From positions 15,327 to 79,326 of the IMG/VR virus record IMGVR_UViG_3300021400_001413: 64,000 nucleotides of DNA; one strand, 5' to 3'. The notes beneath the pieces were generated by a model that was given only the letters and a program-made list of their open reading frames with translations, ran no database searches and was not told the DNA's origin. This document shows, piece after piece, positions 4,102 through 17,383 of this stretch. Positions within the stretch are counted from its first letter, which is position 1. Every line of letters begins with the position of its first letter. This stretch comes from a virus (Duplodnaviria > Caudoviricetes). The translations under genes and the position numbers were made by a program.

Positions 4102-4582
4102 TGTCCTTACTTGCTAAGAGTTCTCCAATATGATGTGCCTCACGGATACACAAGCCCTCATACTTCTTCACATCCTTAGCCAAACAACTACCATAGCCTG
4201 TATCTACGACACCAGATTCTCCAAAGAGTATCTTATCATAGTAATCATACAGCTTGTGTGTTAAGTTATAGAAGAACTTGTAGATATCATACTTAGCCCT
4301 TGCCTCTGCCAGCCTCTCTCCAAGAAGCGAGTCATACTTGTCATCAGGTCTGCATTTAGCCACTCCTTCAGAGTATATGAGCAGACAATTATCTACTATG
4401 TCCTCATAAACTTCTATTTTAGTAGTATAACCTATGAAATCAACAACTTCATCAGGAATATGATTCCAGAATGAAGGCAAATCCACAACTCCCTTTAAGA
4501 TGACGGTGGTGGTTTTTCCTACTTTTTTCACAGCTTTACAGGGATTATTCTCTGTTTCCTTAAAACTTACTTTAAAAATCAT
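4094..4582 (-). CDS. hypothetical protein
   Basis: 162 aa; stop overlaps the dnaB start (translational coupling). Confidence 0.6.
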   Translation of the reverse strand: MIFKVSFKETENNPCKAVKKVGKTTTVILKGVVDLPSFWNHIPDEVVDFIGYTTKIEVYEDIVDNCLLIYSEGVAKCRPDDKYDSLLGERLAEARAKYDIYKFFYNLTHKLYDYYDKILFGESGVVDTGYGSCLAKDVKKYEGLCIREAHHIGELLASKDNG

Positions 4583-4595
4583 ACCTTATTATATA

Positions 4596-5222
4596 TTAAC
4601 GTAATTCTATATCCCAATCAGCACTTGTCTTCTTATCAGGAGTATCCTCAATCCAAGCAGCAAGCTGGCTCTGTCTTTCAACTTCACCAACTACTCTTCC
4701 CCTAACTACCTCTTCACCAGTAACCTTGTTCTTCCAGATGAAATATTTAAGAAGCTGCATATAAGTGTAGTTACCATTGAATGATGCAACATAAGCCTTG
4801 GTAGCCTCTATTACCTGTTCATCACTATATTCACCATACTTCATGAAGAACTTCTTAAGTCTGTCTGTAATACAGGAGACACTATCTCTCCATGTATAGG
4901 CATATCCAGGTTTCTTACCAGCAGGGAATATATCCCTAAGTTTCTCTGCAAGCTGTACACACCTCTCCTCTGAAGCTATATTACTGCTACTTGCCATAAT
5001 ACTCTCAGCAAGATGCTCTCCAGTCACATTCAATGAGACATACTCAGGAAACGGTTTTCGGGGATCATACATCTGCTCAAACAACAATAGATTCTGTTGC
5101 CTTGCTTTCTCAAAGGTGTTAGTGGTAATCCTACAGCCAGAGAGGAGAGAGAGAAGATACAGGATAACATCAGCATCCTTACCTTCTTTCTTACATACTT
5201 CTGTGTCTAAAATAATCTTCAT
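4596..5222 (-). CDS. hypothetical protein, possible replication initiator/helicase loader
   Basis: 208 aa, two genes upstream of dnaB; FPAGKKPG..Y.W motif. Function inferred from position only. Confidence 0.35.
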   Translation of the reverse strand: MKIILDTEVCKKEGKDADVILYLLSLLSGCRITTNTFEKARQQNLLLFEQMYDPRKPFPEYVSLNVTGEHLAESIMASSSNIASEERCVQLAEKLRDIFPAGKKPGYAYTWRDSVSCITDRLKKFFMKYGEYSDEQVIEATKAYVASFNGNYTYMQLLKYFIWKNKVTGEEVVRGRVVGEVERQSQLAAWIEDTPDKKTSADWDIELR

Positions 5223-10269: not shown

Positions 10270-10446
10270 AAGCTGAATTGTTTTGTTGTAAGATTAATAG
10301 TAGTCTCAATGAGAATCGAACTCATATCTAAGGTTTAGGAAACCTTTGTTCTATCCATTGAACTATAAGACCAAATGCCTGCCACTGTAGGCTTAACATT
10401 TAAAGAAAAATTTGAAACGAATATGTCGCTCTCTCAGCGAGTAAAG

Positions 10447-12189: not shown

Positions 12190-12569
12190 AACACTTTAAA
12201 CACCTGCACTAATTATCTGTTAATCAATGATTTATCACTCATTAAGAAGGTGATGAAGGTTTTCTCTTTCTATTATATAATATGTACACGTACATTATAT
12301 ATTTAAATACAAACCATAAACACACTACCACATTCCCAAATACCATTAGTGATTATAAGGGAACCATTACATCTTTCCTATTCAAAACTTTATTTAATTT
12401 CAGAGTGCTATATACGCATTATACAACCTATTTTTTCTTCAAACTTTGCCTTAAATAGAAGTATAGAAGATAGATTATCATCTATCTTCATTCTCATCTC
12501 TTCTAAAGAAAGAAATATATAAAGAAAGAAAGGTTTCTCTTCTCCTTATAATATTGTAAAGAATTAAGA

Positions 12570-12631
12570 ACTATGCATCCTATTTGAACTATGTGTTCTA
12601 CTTAAACTATGTGTACTATGTGTACTATGTG
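12570..12631 (+). repeat. ACTATG(TGT) repeats on a 9-nt register
   Basis: Copies at 12570, 12588, 12606, 12615 and 12624. Confidence 0.7.
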
Positions 12632-12696
12632 CAATAGACAAGAGAAAACCAAATCCCCTCAGCTCCACTGGGGAGCCAAGGGGTTGAAGACCACTG

Positions 12697-13074
12697 TTAG
12701 AAGCTGGCGGCAGTCTTGGCAAGGTCTTCCTGGTTAGAGAGGCCAACACAAGGAACCCAAGCCTTGGTTTCTGGGTTGAAGCTCTCAAAGAAGCAGAGGT
12801 TGTGCTTCTTCTCAACCAACTCAGAAGGTGACATACCCTGGAGCTTCTTGCCAAGGTAATACCTGCCAACTTCAGCATCACCAGCATTGAAGAGGAAAAG
12901 CACATGCTTCTTCTCATTCTCAACTGTGTTCAGCTTGCAGGCACCTCTGGCATTGGTCTCATCACCAAAGGATACACTCTGTGTCAGGTAGCTGATAGAG
13001 CCATTGTCACTTGTGATTTTGGTCACGTTGTTTCTGTTCTCGAAGCTGTTAAGAGTCTCGCGTATCATAAGCAT
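12697..13074 (-). CDS. hypothetical protein, first gene of the leftward block
   Basis: 125 aa; most plausible of three overlapping frames by orientation. Confidence 0.55.
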   Translation of the reverse strand: MLMIRETLNSFENRNNVTKITSDNGSISYLTQSVSFGDETNARGACKLNTVENEKKHVLFLFNAGDAEVGRYYLGKKLQGMSPSELVEKKHNLCFFESFNPETKAWVPCVGLSNQEDLAKTAASF

Positions 13075-13229
13075 TTGTGGAGAAGGAATACGACTACCTT
13101 TGGGAAGTTAACTAATCAAAGTCTCACCCTGAGACACCTTCCCTAAAGGCAGAGGGGGTAGAACCCACTCCTCCGAAGGCAGGTAGGGGTATGGGGTGGC
13201 TATTCTCCCCTTGCATCACTATGAAACAA

Positions 13230-13339
13230 AAAAATTCTGGGGAAAAATTTTTGGAAAAATTCCTCTCTTGTATACCCACAAAACTTTTTGAAAATCAGAA
13301 AAATTTCCAAAAAATTTTAGAAAAAAATTAGGAAAAATT
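13230..13339 (+). repeat. phased A-tract array (AAAAATT x7)
   Basis: Starts at 13230, 13243, 13255, 13299, 13310, 13323 and 13333. Confidence 0.75.
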
Positions 13340-13614
13340 CCCCAATAATTTCTCTTGTTTTCCCTAAATCTTTTCTTCAAACAACTGGCAGAAAAAAGAA
13401 TAATTTTATATTGGCAAATTACCAGCAAATAGAAACTTATTGATTATCAACAGCTTACTTTCTTTTTGGATTTTCTGCGCAAGTAAAAACAGCACTCGCT
13501 TCTCTATAACCCCTGTCTACTTAACCACTTAATAAAGATTAAACTTTCCCCATAAATAGTATATCGTTAAAGAATTATTATTATCTTTGCAGAAACAATC
13601 TAAAGATAACTATT

Positions 13615-13767
13615 ATGGAAGAGAAAAAAGATCCTTGGTGGCTTAAGCCATTAGTATTATTATTTGTATTATTTGTGCTTTTTGGTATGGTTTCAATGTG
13701 TAATCATAGTCTTAAAGAAAGTAGTGGAGTAGGTATAGAATCTACCATAAAAAGTCATGGAGATTAA
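13615..13767 (+). CDS. small single-pass membrane protein (50 aa)
   Basis: MEEKKDPWWLKPLVLLFVLFVLFGMVSMC...; TATCTTTG promoter element at 13582-13589. Confidence 0.55.
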   Translation: MEEKKDPWWLKPLVLLFVLFVLFGMVSMCNHSLKESSGVGIESTIKSHGD

Positions 13768-13849
13768 AAAGATATTAAAATAAATGTTAATAACTTCATT
13801 TTATATCTATAAAGTCACCTTTATATTATAAATAAGGTGTATTTTTGCA

Positions 13850-14320
13850 CCAGCATCCAGTGAGATGTTGTAGCAAGTACTTATGCCATGCTGGTTAAAA
13901 TTGCTGCTTTATTGAGAGAAGTGTTTCATAGTTGAAGTCTTGATTCTACCAACTTGATTGGAGGTAAAGGACCACAAGAAGGGTACAGGTAAAGAATCCT
14001 AGGGTGTAAAAGAGACAGAGAGCCTATAGTTACTGTTCATCTGGAGACCCGCAAGTCAATGAAGGATGTTCTAGGAGGCAAGACGGGGATGGATGCTAGG
14101 TTACACAGCAAGCGAAAATCTTGCAACCCAGGGCTTAAAGAAGGTTTTGCCCAAGGTCTCTTAATGAAGAATTAACAATTTTAAATTAGTAAATAAGGAA
14201 TGAGGAATGGCATGTCTTGTTTTGAAATATTGCCTTTACCGCCTGGGGTTGAAGACCCAGAAAAACATAGGAGGACACCTGCCAAATCCGTCTAAATCTC
14301 TTGGGTGTCCTCCGTTTTTT
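13850..14320 (+). ncRNA. candidate large structured ncRNA
   Basis: TATTTTTG at 13840-13847; closing hairpin GGAGGACACC 14270-14279 / GGTGTCCTCC 14304-14313 plus T6; several long-range complementarities; no credible ORF. Confidence 0.6.
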
Positions 14321-14403
14321 ATTTTTAGAGATATAATTGTTTTATTTACTAAGAACTGTTATTTGGATTCTTTTGTTTATATTTGCAGCAAAATATATAG
14401 ATT

Positions 14404-15906
14404 ATGAAAGTTTGGAATGAATTATCAATGGCAGAGAAAGCTGATGTGATGAAGCTTGCTATAGAAGGAGGTGTCTATGATTTAGATGCCATCAGGTCTG
14501 GGTATAATGAGTATGCCAAAGGTGGAAAGATACATATTGATCCAAGTAAGAAGGGAACCTTTACAGCAGCTGCCTCTAAACATGGAATGGGAGTACAGCA
14601 GTTTGCCTCTAAAGTATTAGCACATCCAGAGAACTATTCTCCTGCTATGAGAAAGAAAGCCAACTTTGCTAGAAATGCAGCCAAATGGAAGCATGAAGAT
14701 GGAGGAAGTTTGTATGCACATGGAGGAGAATTAGGAAATTATTATGATGGTTGGGGAGATGCTTTGAATTTCTTGAAGAAAGGATGGAATAAAGTTAAAG
14801 ATGCTGTACAAGCATCTGCTGTTTATGAGAATCCTGCTGTTATGATGGCAGCGGGTCAAAAAGTTAACCAACAGGGAAAAGTGGAATATAATCATATAAA
14901 TGATAATGAAGTTAAACAGCTAAGAAATAACCTTGCCACTTTAGGAGAAGGAGCTTTGAGTGCTGTTACAGCTACAGGAGATGTAGAAGCTGCATATAAT
15001 ATGTTAAGACATCCTGTTCAGACTGCAAAGGCAATAAAAGCCAGTTTAAAGCCCGTTTATAATAAAATTGCTAACAAGAGTAAAGCAAAAGTTCTTGAAG
15101 AAGAAAGTTTTATTCCAGACTATATTAAAAGAAAAGTAGGTAGTAACATCACTGAAGAATCCGTAGTAAAGGATATTAATAAAGCTAAGGACTATAAAGA
15201 ATCAGATGGTTATAGAAAGTTAGTTGAATCTTTCATTGCTGAAGCTGGGGATAATAGCATTCCTGTTGATGCCTTTTACAGGAGCAGAAAATCTGTTCCA
15301 GAGATAATATTGGAAAAAAGACCTGACGGACATCTAGGTGGATACAACTATCACGACAACAGATTGTCTGTTGATCCAGCACAAGCCACAGAAGACGTTC
15401 CATTTCACGAGGGCTTACATTGGCAAAGAATAGGAAAGCCTGAGGTAGAAAGAGGAGAAGCTTATGAAGCCTGGGCCAAGGCATTTGATGAGAATGCTCC
15501 TGAAGAAATCCAAGATGCATTATTTAATAAGTATTATAATTCAGAACTTGGAAAGCAGGCAATGAGACAGGAAAAAGCCATTAAAGATTTGTACGATAGA
15601 AAAGTTGAAGATGTTTTGTATTCAGATGTTTCTAAAAACAGTGAAATGCGAAAACATGAAGAATTACTTGCACATACATGGGGAGTTGGAGAATCTTTAG
15701 GATTAGAAGCTTTTCAGGATTATCCAGGAATGGCAAAGGCTTTAGATACAATAGAAAAAGCCAGGAAAAAAGATTCATTTTTGTGGGATGTAAAGGCAGG
15801 AACACAAGATGAAGTTCAAAATTTCTGGAAATTATTAACTGGTAATTATGCACCGTCTGTAATGATTGGAACATCTGCATTAGGATTAGAAGAACTAAAA
15901 AAATAA
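14404..15906 (+). CDS. putative virion cargo protein: AxGG-bounded N-terminal module plus zincin metallopeptidase domain
   Basis: YAKGG, HEDGG and YAHGG flank an IHIDPSKKGTFTA...ANFARNAAKW module recalled from crAss-like proteins; HEGLH with a downstream E (KHEELLA); TATATTTG promoter at 14378-14385. Confidence 0.6.
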   Translation: MKVWNELSMAEKADVMKLAIEGGVYDLDAIRSGYNEYAKGGKIHIDPSKKGTFTAAASKHGMGVQQFASKVLAHPENYSPAMRKKANFARNAAKWKHEDGGSLYAHGGELGNYYDGWGDALNFLKKGWNKVKDAVQASAVYENPAVMMAAGQKVNQQGKVEYNHINDNEVKQLRNNLATLGEGALSAVTATGDVEAAYNMLRHPVQTAKAIKASLKPVYNKIANKSKAKVLEEESFIPDYIKRKVGSNITEESVVKDINKAKDYKESDGYRKLVESFIAEAGDNSIPVDAFYRSRKSVPEIILEKRPDGHLGGYNYHDNRLSVDPAQATEDVPFHEGLHWQRIGKPEVERGEAYEAWAKAFDENAPEEIQDALFNKYYNSELGKQAMRQEKAIKDLYDRKVEDVLYSDVSKNSEMRKHEELLAHTWGVGESLGLEAFQDYPGMAKALDTIEKARKKDSFLWDVKAGTQDEVQNFWKLLTGNYAPSVMIGTSALGLEELKK

Positions 15907-16228: not shown

Positions 16229-17383
16229 TTATTCAAGATTTTGGGCTTTTTCTTTAATAGCATCCACCACAGTCTCATCAAGAAGCTTGGCATATATTTG
16301 CTCTGTTATCTTCAAAGATGAATGTCCACATATCTTAGTGACTATCTTCATATCTATTCCTTCGTTAAGGAGGATAGTTGCTCCAGTATGTCTAGCCCAG
16401 TGTGTAGTTAATCCAACATCTAACCCTGCTGCTTGTGCTACATTCTTCAAGTAGAGATTATATTTCACATTACTTATTATAGGTAATACCCCTCTGTATT
16501 TAGCAAGAATATCAAGAGCAGGCTGGAGTAGGGGAATAGTAGTACTTTTCTTTGTCTTCTTCTGATTGAACTTATAGACTTCTGTACCATTAATGATTAC
16601 TATATTGTTAGGATTGAATCTTGCAAGATCTGAGTATCTCAGGCAAGTATAAGTCTGGAATACAAATAAATCTCTGACTCTTTTAAGACTATCTGTAGGC
16701 ATCTTAGCAATTCTTAATTGATGGAATTCATTTAAAGTCAGACATTTATCCAAACTATTATTGTCCTTTCCTTTATCTATATTTACCCACTTATATGGAT
16801 TTCTTTGCAGTAGCCCGTCATCAATTGCATCTAAGATAAAACTATTAAGAAAGCGGTGGTAGTTCTGCCATTTGCTGTAGTTCTTCATACCTTGGTGTAT
16901 AAGGTATTTGTCATAAGCTATGATATTACTGTCATTGATATCATTGAATGTCTTTATCTTTCCCCAGGAAGTGAATTTCCTGAGAAACCTTTCATATCTC
17001 TGCTGGGTGTCTTTCTCTTTACCGTACTCTCTTACAGCAGCCCTCTGGTTACAAAAATCAATGAATCCGATTTTATCAAGCTCTTTCCTGTTGAGTCTAT
17101 CCTGAATAGTGAATATATCAATATTGTCTTCTTGGATCATATCTATTAGCACCTGTCTTACATTAGATACAAGCTTATCAAGAACCTGACTTATCTGAAG
17201 GATATTATCACAGTTGGTTATCTTGCCATCTTTCCATTGATTAGGATATAACCATATTCCAGTACTGAGGTATTTCTGTTTTCTGTTGTGAGTTACTCTG
17301 ATTTCTACTACAGCTTTGGTCTTTGCATCTGCTTTCTTATACCTATTATATATAAGGTGTATTTGTGGAAATTTGTTATTCAT
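16229..17383 (-). CDS. int: tyrosine integrase, Bacteroidota type with arm-binding N-terminal domain
   Basis: N-terminal VEIRVTHNRKQKYLSTGI arm-binding module; catalytic set intact: CLRYSD (R), KTKK (K), HWARH (HxxR), GHSS (H), QIYAK (Y). Confidence 0.92.
   Translation of the reverse strand: MNNKFPQIHLIYNRYKKADAKTKAVVEIRVTHNRKQKYLSTGIWLYPNQWKDGKITNCDNILQISQVLDKLVSNVRQVLIDMIQEDNIDIFTIQDRLNRKELDKIGFIDFCNQRAAVREYGKEKDTQQRYERFLRKFTSWGKIKTFNDINDSNIIAYDKYLIHQGMKNYSKWQNYHRFLNSFILDAIDDGLLQRNPYKWVNIDKGKDNNSLDKCLTLNEFHQLRIAKMPTDSLKRVRDLFVFQTYTCLRYSDLARFNPNNIVIINGTEVYKFNQKKTKKSTTIPLLQPALDILAKYRGVLPIISNVKYNLYLKNVAQAAGLDVGLTTHWARHTGATILLNEGIDMKIVTKICGHSSLKITEQIYAKLLDETVVDAIKEKAQNLE

Follow-up and report, generated by a model that had tools for sequence, protein, structure and literature searches.

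A large pseudoknotted RNA, apparently undescribed, upstream of TerL in a subset of crAss-like phages

The RNA described here lies at positions 13848-14320 on the plus strand of a 64,000-nt stretch of DNA (hereafter the window), which is a portion of the 79-kb IMG/VR record IMGVR_UViG_3300021400_001413. The stretch belongs to a crAss-like virus, whose TerL shares 52-57% identity with the TerL proteins of three Crassvirales, namely cr85_1, IAS virus and crAss001. We conclude with high confidence that the RNA, of about 470 nt, represents a real and new family of structured RNA that is not in Rfam 15, and the family is found in a subset of crAss-like phages from the rumen, the human gut and the rodent gut. 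An earlier, sequence-only reading of the window had proposed a new, large, structured and pseudoknotted phage RNA at this place. Homologues, covariation, conservation of the promoter and the terminator, and the lack of an Rfam match bear this proposal out, although most of the long-range helices suggested at the time proved wrong in the comparative test; the observation as worded is partly confirmed and its interpretation supported. Nor is the RNA an orphan, as it belongs to a family that extends over several Crassvirales lineages.

Homologues and covariation

The RNA stretch recurs with 91-92% identity in three IMG/VR contigs that share the downstream open reading frame (ORF), against 73% for the integrase gene and 78-80% for other flanks of these contigs, and the spacers immediately flanking the RNA are far more diverged than the RNA itself. 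The G+C fraction of the RNA stretch is 0.40-0.44, as compared to about 0.28 in the flanks. Protein-anchored look-ups and one metagenome scan with an invariant 19-mer enlarged the set to 14 distinct sequences, here called type 1, with a lowest identity of 67%. Homologues identified with nhmmer and with covariance models (CMs) span the full length of the RNA, the ends of which were placed from its promoter and terminator. No plausible ORF had been seen in the stretch, and the comparison agrees: there are 7-12 stops in every frame, no ORF is conserved in any frame across the 14 homologues, stop reassignment opens none, and the indels between homologues are not in multiples of three.

The minimum free energy of the single sequence gave z-scores of -0.55 on the plus strand and -0.87 on the minus strand relative to dinucleotide shuffles. 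This fold is not beyond chance and speaks against a structured RNA, so that the structural evidence must be comparative. The inferred architecture starts with helices P1 and P2, followed by a long-range helix, P3, that encloses P4-P11. Within it, P4 and P5 enclose two arms, the P6 domain (13942-98) and an arm consisting of P7, P8 and P9 (14022-79), after which P10 and P11 follow.

Using RNAalifold on the 14 sequences, 74 pairs were obtained, 32 of which have compensatory changes. A hand-refined model that includes the pseudoknot was scored on an alignment corresponding to window positions 13849-14178 (alignment A5), in which 97.0% of the cells form a standard pair and 31 of the 74 pairs are changed on both sides. 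The number of pairs changed on both sides was 13.7±2.3 in column shuffles, with none of 500 reaching 31, and only 3-9 when the 3' partners were slid by 1-3 columns, a control that preserves sequence relatedness, which the column shuffles do not. At least one compensated pair was found in each of the 12 helices. For P6, 13 of the 16 pairs covary on 18 sequences in the revised register of P6b, and 14 of 16 covary on 12 further loci matched by the CM named R2 below (96% of cells paired), the alignment of these 12 being model-fitted and so biased towards structure. Collection of homologues and a covariation test had been suggested as a check of the sequence-only reading, and the compensatory pairs came out well above both shuffles and slid controls. 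The G-U pairs 13940-14087, 13941-14086 and 13932-14095 are invariant and would be A-C on the other strand, which fixes the RNA to the plus strand. Two helices seen in an alifold of four sequences (13890-903/14177-91 and GUCUU/AAGGAC) were lost under wider sampling.

Distribution and relation to described RNAs

A 66-nt nhmmer match in the loci L085, L094 and L095 defines type 2a, with the layout promoter-RNA-terminator upstream of an Amidase_3 endolysin gene, in phages whose TerL is only 45% identical to that of the window. Type 2a keeps P3, P5, P6a-d and the pseudoknot with altered yet paired sequences, lacks P7-P9, and retains the unpaired strings CCAACUU and AAGAAGGGUACAGGUAAAG exactly. Amidase-anchored look-ups yielded type 2b. 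From 2a to 2b, P3 is wholly swapped (AACUUAUCAAG/CUUGAUAAGUU to GUAGUAAAAG/CUUUUACUAC) and still paired, and the equivalent of P4 changes from CAUGAGA/UCUCAUG to CAUGGAA/UUCCAUG.

We built a CM of the P5-P6 region (R1) and rebuilt it with the revised P6b register (R2). R1 matched two GenBank genomes, those of cr85_1 (Kahnovirus oralis, from human faeces; positions 192-286) and bajarodcaudo virus 1 (from rodent faeces; 92408-92508), in both cases in unannotated sequence of the TerL strand, with TerL 6-7.6 kb further downstream. R2 matched 12 of 80 TerL-anchored IMG/VR crAss-like loci, and all 12 matches share the strand of TerL and precede it by 4.3-9.9 kb. The E-values of the R1 and R2 matches ranged from 1e-29 to 1e-11, and the window scores 117 bits against R1. 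Inspection of cr85_1 by eye revealed P3, P4 (9 bp), P5 (7 bp), P6 and the pseudoknot along with the type-1 motif GUAGCAAGUACUU. The universal core consists of P3, P4, P5, the P6 domain with its invariant CCAAC ... AAGGG(U/C)ACAGG(U/C)AA, and a pseudoknot that joins the post-P6 junction to the strand immediately preceding the 3' strand of P3. The window has the features by which the family is defined, namely the P6 domain together with P3, P5 and the pseudoknot, upstream of TerL.

The annotated hypothetical coding sequence gp001 of cr85_1 (NC_055883.1 400-1086) begins inside the RNA, the 3' strands of the pseudoknot and of P3 being located at about 421-447; its true start probably lies further downstream.

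A blastn search against INPHARED with the window RNA, the adjoining GC-rich region and the cr85_1 RNA matched only the query itself, and loci anchored on the integrase at 48-60% identity lack the RNA. Beyond chance matches, pattern scans with AAGACGGGGATGGATGC added nothing, and the 19-mer also matches an unrelated coding context (KKGTGK) and two unrelated genomes. Amidase-linked relatives without the RNA contain one or two short units instead (L101 1640-1830; L103 1890-1995). In each unit, a TAnnTTTG promoter is followed by 40-60 nt and then by a terminator whose loop is UGUGAAA/UGCGAAAG, and the units may encode small RNAs.

A search of the whole window with the 4227 CMs of Rfam 15 at the gathering score returned only a tRNA at 10301-10372. 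At E<=10 nothing overlaps the body of the RNA, and, among the matches listed, the sole one touching its end is a minus-strand match to BTnc060 across the terminator, at 17 bits versus a threshold of 229 bits. Eight homologue loci searched at E<=5 gave scattered, inconsistent weak matches only (mir-143, ROSE_3). The ROOL, GOLLD, OLE, raiA and HEARO models had no match at E<=10, cmscan was negative for RNase P RNA, tmRNA, SRP RNA and 6S RNA, and ARAGORN found no tmRNA. The Rfam comparison, which had been proposed as a check, thus gave no match to a described family, and the earlier remark that hallmarks of tmRNA, RNase P and SRP are lacking holds.

No such RNA was encountered in full-text literature searches, which included a comparison of crAss-like genomes (PMC7886860) and a catalogue drawn from IMG/VR (PMC10690425). 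The catalogue (Fremin et al. 2023) contains structured-RNA candidates, roughly 10,000 of them unnamed, from the same data source as used here and of the same kind of object. Its main text has no crAss, rumen or Bacteroid-related motif, and the family could be among its unnamed candidates. Other RNAs that invite comparison are ROOL and GOLLD, which are large, ornate RNAs of unknown function that are frequent in phages and prophages, ROOL having first been found in rumen metagenomes (PMC5737381, PMC12286853). The present family is similarly large (300-470 nt), multi-helix, pseudoknotted, phage-borne and distributed in rumen and gut, and its palindromic loop is a possible signal for self-association. 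It differs in that it matches their Rfam models in neither sequence nor structure, occurs in crAss-like phages of Bacteroidota rather than Firmicutes, has a fixed position upstream of TerL and is, in many lineages, a leader rather than a separate gene.

Architecture and genomic setting

All five long-range complementarities listed in the sequence-only reading exist in the window at the positions given, but their fates differ: the fifth is confirmed, the fourth is lineage-specific, the first is ambiguous, and the second and third are refuted. The first, AGCATCCA/TGGATGCT, stays compatible among the homologues; the covariation, however, belongs to a competing local hairpin, P1 (13851-13870, CAGCAUC/GAUGUUG), in which 5 of 7 pairs are changed on both sides. 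An alternative 5' hairpin, CCAGCAT/ATGCTGG, is not conserved. The next helix, P2 (UAGCA 13871-75/UGCUG 13902-06; UAACA/UGUUA in L064), was obtained in constrained folds; in the loop that it closes lie the invariant palindrome AAGUACUU (13876-83) and a hairpin that is small and variable. The sequence CAAGUACU is kept in cr85_1, bajarodcaudo virus 1, L155 and L174. The long-range closing helix P3 is formed by CUUUAUU (13907-13) and AAUGAAG (14163-69), and is CUUAAAA/UUUUAAG in cr85_1. P4 comprises GUGU 13921-24/ACAC 14103-06, the pair C13927-G14100 and UAGU 13929-32/GCUA 14095-98; its pair 13923-14104 occurs as G-C, U-A and C-G.

P5 (GUCUU 13937-41/GGGAU 14086-90) is paired in 100% of cases and kept in type 2, cr85_1 and L191, and its pair 13938-14089 occurs as U-A, G-C, A-U and C-G. 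It displaces the second of the earlier complementarities, GTCTTG/CAAGAC, the 3' strand of which is invariant while changes on the 5' strand are uncompensated; GGGAU is the true partner of 13937-41. The P6 domain (13942-13998), which is the hallmark of the family, is built from P6a (GAUUCU 13942-47/AGAAUC 13993-98), P6b (ACC 13948-50/GGU 13982-84), P6c (CUUG 13953-56/CAAG 13975-78) and P6d (UGG 13959-61/CCA 13972-74), with a terminal loop at 13962-71. The pairs AGC/GCU of cr85_1 and GCC/GGC of type 2b settle the register of P6b, and on this basis an initial pairing of ACC with GGU 13988-90, used in R1, was replaced. With the register at 13982-84, an invariant 8-nt bulge, ACAGGUAA, results on the 3' side at 13985-92.

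The fifth complementarity, AAGAGAC/GTCTCTT, turned out to be a real pseudoknot, with A-U replaced by G-C at two positions in L063, L064 and L077. Its helix pairs AAGAGA (14010-15), in the P6-P7 junction, with UCUCUU (14157-62), between P11 and the 3' strand of P3 and contiguous with both; the crossing of P4 and P5 by this helix makes it a true pseudoknot. Three pairs are changed on both sides (AAGGGG/CCCCUU in L063, L064 and L077), and the helix is GGGAC/GUCCC in type 2 and AAGAGG/UCUCUU in cr85_1.

P7 (GCCU 14022-25/AGGC 14076-79 and UAG 14027-29/CUA 14071-73), P8 (CAUCU 14038-42/GGAUG 14064-68) and P9 (GAC 14046-48/GUC 14055-57) make up an arm (14022-14079) that is specific to type 1 and missing in type 2 and the cr85_1-like RNAs. 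The third complementarity, TCCTAG/CTAGGA, again with an invariant 3' strand and uncompensated 5' changes, gives way here, as CUAGGAGG pairs with ACCUAUAG at 14022-29 (ACCU...UAG). P10 is a hairpin at 14108-14124 (GCAAG/CUUGC) with a 7-nt loop, YGAAAHU, and three pairs changed on both sides. P11 (CC 14127-28/GG 14155-56 and GGGC 14131-34/GCCC 14149-52) has a conserved 14-nt loop, and its GGGC/GCCC is replaced by CCUC/GAGG and by ACCG/CGGU.

The variable 3' domain (14170-14269) holds CCUUUACCGCC at 14233-43 and a covarying hairpin at 14243-47/14256-60 (CUGAG/CUCAG in L080). The fourth complementarity, GGAGGTAAAGG/CCTTTACCGCC, holds in the clade of the window, where the terminal loop of P6 (13960-70) pairs with 14233-43 in a second pseudoknot (PK2), with compensations in L074 (14 bp), L068 (G-C to U-A) and L080 (A-U to G-C). 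RNAduplex z-scores for PK2 were -2.0 in the window, -5.3 in L074 and -2.4 in L068. It is not kept in L063, L064 and L083, and the best partner of the P6 loop in L063, L064 and L077 is the terminator loop instead of 14233-43, so the P6 loop pairs with a sequence of the 3' domain or of the terminator loop, depending on the lineage.

The -7 promoter consensus of Bacteroidota is TAnnTTTG. A box of this type, TATTTTTG, is located at 13840-13847, immediately upstream of the RNA as previously noted, with a predicted start of transcription at about 13848-13851. The TAnnTTTG box and an upstream block (GTTAAT ... TATATTATAAATAAGG) are kept in all 14 type-1 homologues, and the box also precedes the RNA in type 2 and the remaining lineages. 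The same motif is found ahead of the small ORF at 13615-13767 and the 500-residue ORF at 14404-15906 (box TATATTTG at 14378-14385); with one host-type promoter per unit in this genome, the RNA stretch is a unit of its own. At the other end lies an intrinsic terminator (14270-14320), which is the 10-bp hairpin with T6 seen before. Its stem, GGAGGACACC (14270-79) with GGTGTCCTCC (14304-13), covaries and encloses a 24-nt loop conserved in sequence, and U6 follows at 14315-20; the energy is -20.1 kcal/mol as estimated with our own script. A consensus terminator scanner made no call because of the 24-nt loop. The terminator is present in types 1, 2a and 2b and was not found in the remaining lineages.

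Two layouts can be distinguished. In types 1, 2a and 2b, which are those of the rumen, the strong intrinsic terminator comes directly after the RNA, and a separate TAnnTTTG promoter for the next gene comes after the terminator; 11 of 12 rumen loci have such a motif in the interval from the terminator to the next ATG. In nine non-rumen lineages there is no terminator before the next ORF and usually no promoter, and the RNA is a 5' leader. The stand-alone unit of the sequence-only reading is hence valid for the window and its rumen relatives but not for these other lineages, where the RNA leads the next gene, and this bears on its function.

The next gene often encodes a peptidoglycan hydrolase; it is an amidase in type 2 and PI-PLC-like in cr85_1 and bajarodcaudo virus 1. 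A lysine-rich N-terminal module, WNxLSxAxK, is present in the next gene at 8 of the 11 type-1 loci with downstream sequence and at L155 and L174, and is fused to varied C-terminal domains across the protein database, lysozymes and transglycosylases among them. In the window it corresponds to the first approximately 110 residues of the 14404-15906 protein (homologues P0002-P0120), where the C-terminal partner is a zincin; partners elsewhere are GH24 lysozyme, SLT, PF18013 and peptidoglycan-binding domains. Relative to the window, L003 has an insert of about 800 nt (4123-4934) inside the N-terminal module of the downstream ORF, and its match to window positions 14506-14736 resumes at L003 4934. 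A related N-domain gene and an integrase gene adjoin host genes (Impact_N, carbamoyl-phosphate synthase) at the P0013 locus (NCBI GCA_024712465.1), which represents an integrated prophage and gives a clue to the host.

On the strand leading to TerL, the RNA is the first unit past a divergent switch region rich in A-tracts. Every lineage has, shortly before the RNA promoter, a G-run/C-run hairpin with long A-tracts after it (window 13150-13560; L104 1390-1520; L117 1-80; L103 1660-1770), and the cr85_1 record begins in this region. It marks the divergent switch and the minimum of the cumulative GC skew, and may be an origin or terminus. Further upstream, a GC-rich block (G+C 0.45-0.50) contains a 125-residue minus-strand ORF (window 12564-13074; MLMTRETLNSFEN...) with a terminator at 12683..12655 on the minus strand. 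This ORF has no Pfam or PHROG match, is conserved in L002, L003, L009 and L064, and its place is taken by a different 110-residue ORF in L063 and L080. The block at 12590-13230 was considered as a second RNA and rejected on account of the conserved minus-strand ORF. At most type-1 loci, the RNA comes after the gene of a small single-pass membrane protein of 45-70 residues (window 13615-13767, plus strand). This protein exists in two versions unrelated in sequence and could act together with the downstream hydrolase, as a holin-like protein or otherwise in lysis; its gene is not a constant neighbour of the RNA, on which ground an antisense or type I toxin-antitoxin pairing between the two was set aside. 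Several relatives have an in-frame insert of about 1.1 kb in TerL, with an open frame of 1166 residues, no stops and two-piece matches, which looks like an intein (G003:C1:8313-11780, the record of L002; L181, L176, L178; DAC15 MT074136.1 9432-12620).

Possible modes of action

In the reading that we prefer, the RNA would be transcribed by the host RNA polymerase and, in this phage, released as a transcript of about 470 nt at the intrinsic terminator; its expression is inferred from the sequence signals. The RNA gene would open a rightward gene block containing TerL, and the RNA would act in cis as an operon leader that decides polymerase entry into the downstream late module. This could occur by processive antitermination of the put/EAR kind on the polymerase that made the RNA, or by attenuation at the terminator behind it in dependence on a factor or ligand, with the invariant bulge and loop of P6 as a putative recognition surface. 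A cis leader is favoured by the constant position on the TerL strand in combination with a variable next gene: the RNA shares the strand of TerL and lies upstream of it in all 12 R2 matches, in cr85_1 and in bajarodcaudo virus 1, nine non-rumen lineages have the RNA as leader, and a strong terminator comes right after it in the rumen lineages. The RNA also has the position of an antitermination RNA, at the 5' start of the operon, on the operon strand and directly after a TAnnTTTG promoter.

The HK022 putL/putR and Bacillus EAR elements are processive antitermination RNAs of about 65-120 nt, and EAR has a pseudoknot. The present RNA resembles them in being a cis-encoded, structured RNA that heads a long co-directional operon, past the promoter and with terminators after it, and it shares the presence of a pseudoknot with EAR. 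It is unlike them in that it is structurally unrelated and larger and, in the window, is followed by a separate promoter and a convergent integrase gene.

Several observations weigh against a cis-acting leader. The ends and abundance of the transcript are deduced rather than observed. A conserved promoter of its own serves the downstream gene in the window and the related rumen loci, and the next block of plus-strand genes is separated by the minus-strand tyrosine integrase gene (16229-17383 in the window); both features make an effect in cis less likely at this locus and would suit an RNA that stands alone and acts in trans. Known antitermination RNAs are smaller by a factor of 4-6, inspection by eye revealed no anti-terminator pairing that is conserved, and the downstream gene is heterogeneous (N-domain hydrolase, amidase, PI-PLC-like and others). 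Finally, R2 had no match in 10 related Asinivirinae genomes (IAS virus, cr111_1, PhiCrAssBcn9, cr112_1, cr108_1, cr126_1, cr128_1, cr116_1 and the cultured crAss001 and DAC15), so the family is patchy and not essential to the order. On balance, we regard the leader or antitermination mechanism as plausible, though by itself slightly more doubtful than probable; the identity of the RNA and a cis mechanism, taken together as one account, seem to us somewhat probable.

It is also possible, with a likelihood of about one third, that the RNA is instead a stable, trans-acting molecule, released at the terminator or processed from the leader, that serves as part of a ribonucleoprotein (RNP), as a ribozyme or as a self-assembling RNA. 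It could dimerise through the invariant palindromic loop, and would then be comparable in kind to ROOL, GOLLD and OLE; the 8-nt palindrome lies in a loop in 12 of the 14 type-1 sequences and is present in cr85_1, but is missing in type 2 and in L191/L192. The own promoter, strong terminator and separate next-gene promoter of the rumen loci fit such a molecule, as does the convergent integrase gene in the window, whereas in at least nine lineages there is no terminator and the next gene merely has the RNA as its 5' leader. The neighbours vary as in a moron-like cassette, with other units standing in place of the RNA in L067, L101 and L103, and invariant unpaired stretches of 19-21 nt persist across phages with 45% TerL identity; on the other hand, no catalytic or known protein-binding motif was recognised in the RNA. 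The recurrent adjacency to the WNxLSxAxK N-domain protein in type 1, L155 and L174 also speaks for a trans-acting RNA, yet homologues of this domain are abundant and 47 of 50 viral loci carrying one gave no match to the RNA.

A special case of the cis leader is a riboswitch-like sensor, in which the core of P3-P6 and the pseudoknot would bind a metabolite or second messenger and set termination (in rumen lineages) or translation (in others) of downstream lysis or virion genes. Terminator-platform riboswitches and attenuators likewise combine a conserved core, invariant junctions, a pseudoknot, a terminator in some lineages and a variable platform, and the invariant junction and bulge nucleotides, the covarying helices, the platform with or without a terminator and the frequent peptidoglycan hydrolases downstream are all consistent with this idea. 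However, at 230-260 nt the core is far larger than almost all aptamers, the separate promoter bypasses the terminator in rumen loci, the regulated genes would be heterogeneous, and neither a ligand nor a switching helix was identified, there being no conserved alternative pairing of the anti-terminator type. We consider a sensor improbable.

That the RNA is a diverged member of a known large class (group I or II intron, RNase P RNA, tmRNA, ROOL, GOLLD, HEARO or omega RNA) is very unlikely. The 3' strand of P6, AAGGGUACAGGUAAAG, seems superficially similar to P5abc of the group I intron of Tetrahymena, but cr85_1 sets the register of P6b otherwise than a P5a-like pairing would. The helix order, P3[P4(P5(P6, PK5', P7-9))P10 P11 PK3'], where PK denotes the pseudoknot strands, differs from the P3/P7 topology of group I introns and from the topology of RNase P. 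It does not fit the definition of a group I intron by the P3-P4-P5-P6-P7-P3'-P8-P7' pseudoknot topology, a guanosine-binding P7 and rejoining exons; the RNA is bounded by a promoter and a terminator instead of exons, and the window and eight homologue loci had no match to RF00028 and no consistent match to Rfam as a whole. A group I P7-like pairing, GACUCUA/UAUAGUC, was rejected as GACUCU covaries with AGAGUC. Least likely of all, and already contradicted by the covariation, is a DNA-level element (origin, packaging or operator region) or a missed short gene: the stretch does adjoin the strand-switch region with its G-runs, A-tracts and skew minimum, and AAGTACTT could serve as an operator, but the compensatory changes keep Watson-Crick and G-U pairing on the plus strand only, the indels and the stops in all frames of all homologues argue against a gene, and the promoter and terminator are conserved.

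Large RNAs with complex, pseudoknotted folds supported by covariation are, to our knowledge, rare, and such RNAs have historically proved to be ribozymes, RNP cores or sophisticated regulators. The structured RNA family described here appears undescribed, and it occupies a fixed, strategic position at the head of the module on the TerL side in members of Crassvirales, which are prominent among the phages of the gut and whose gene regulation is poorly understood. That the family is a hitherto overlooked class of large RNA confined to crAss-like phages and conserved between those of the rumen and the human gut, either a polymerase-modifying antitermination RNA several times more complex than put and EAR or a new ribozyme or ligand sensor gating the late (virion and lysis) programme, is a speculative and rather unlikely outcome. 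The alignment and model enable systematic annotation of crAss-like genomes, as for the start of the hypothetical protein of cr85_1 that overlaps the RNA, and the family offers a concrete handle on the control of late and lysis genes in crAss-like phages.

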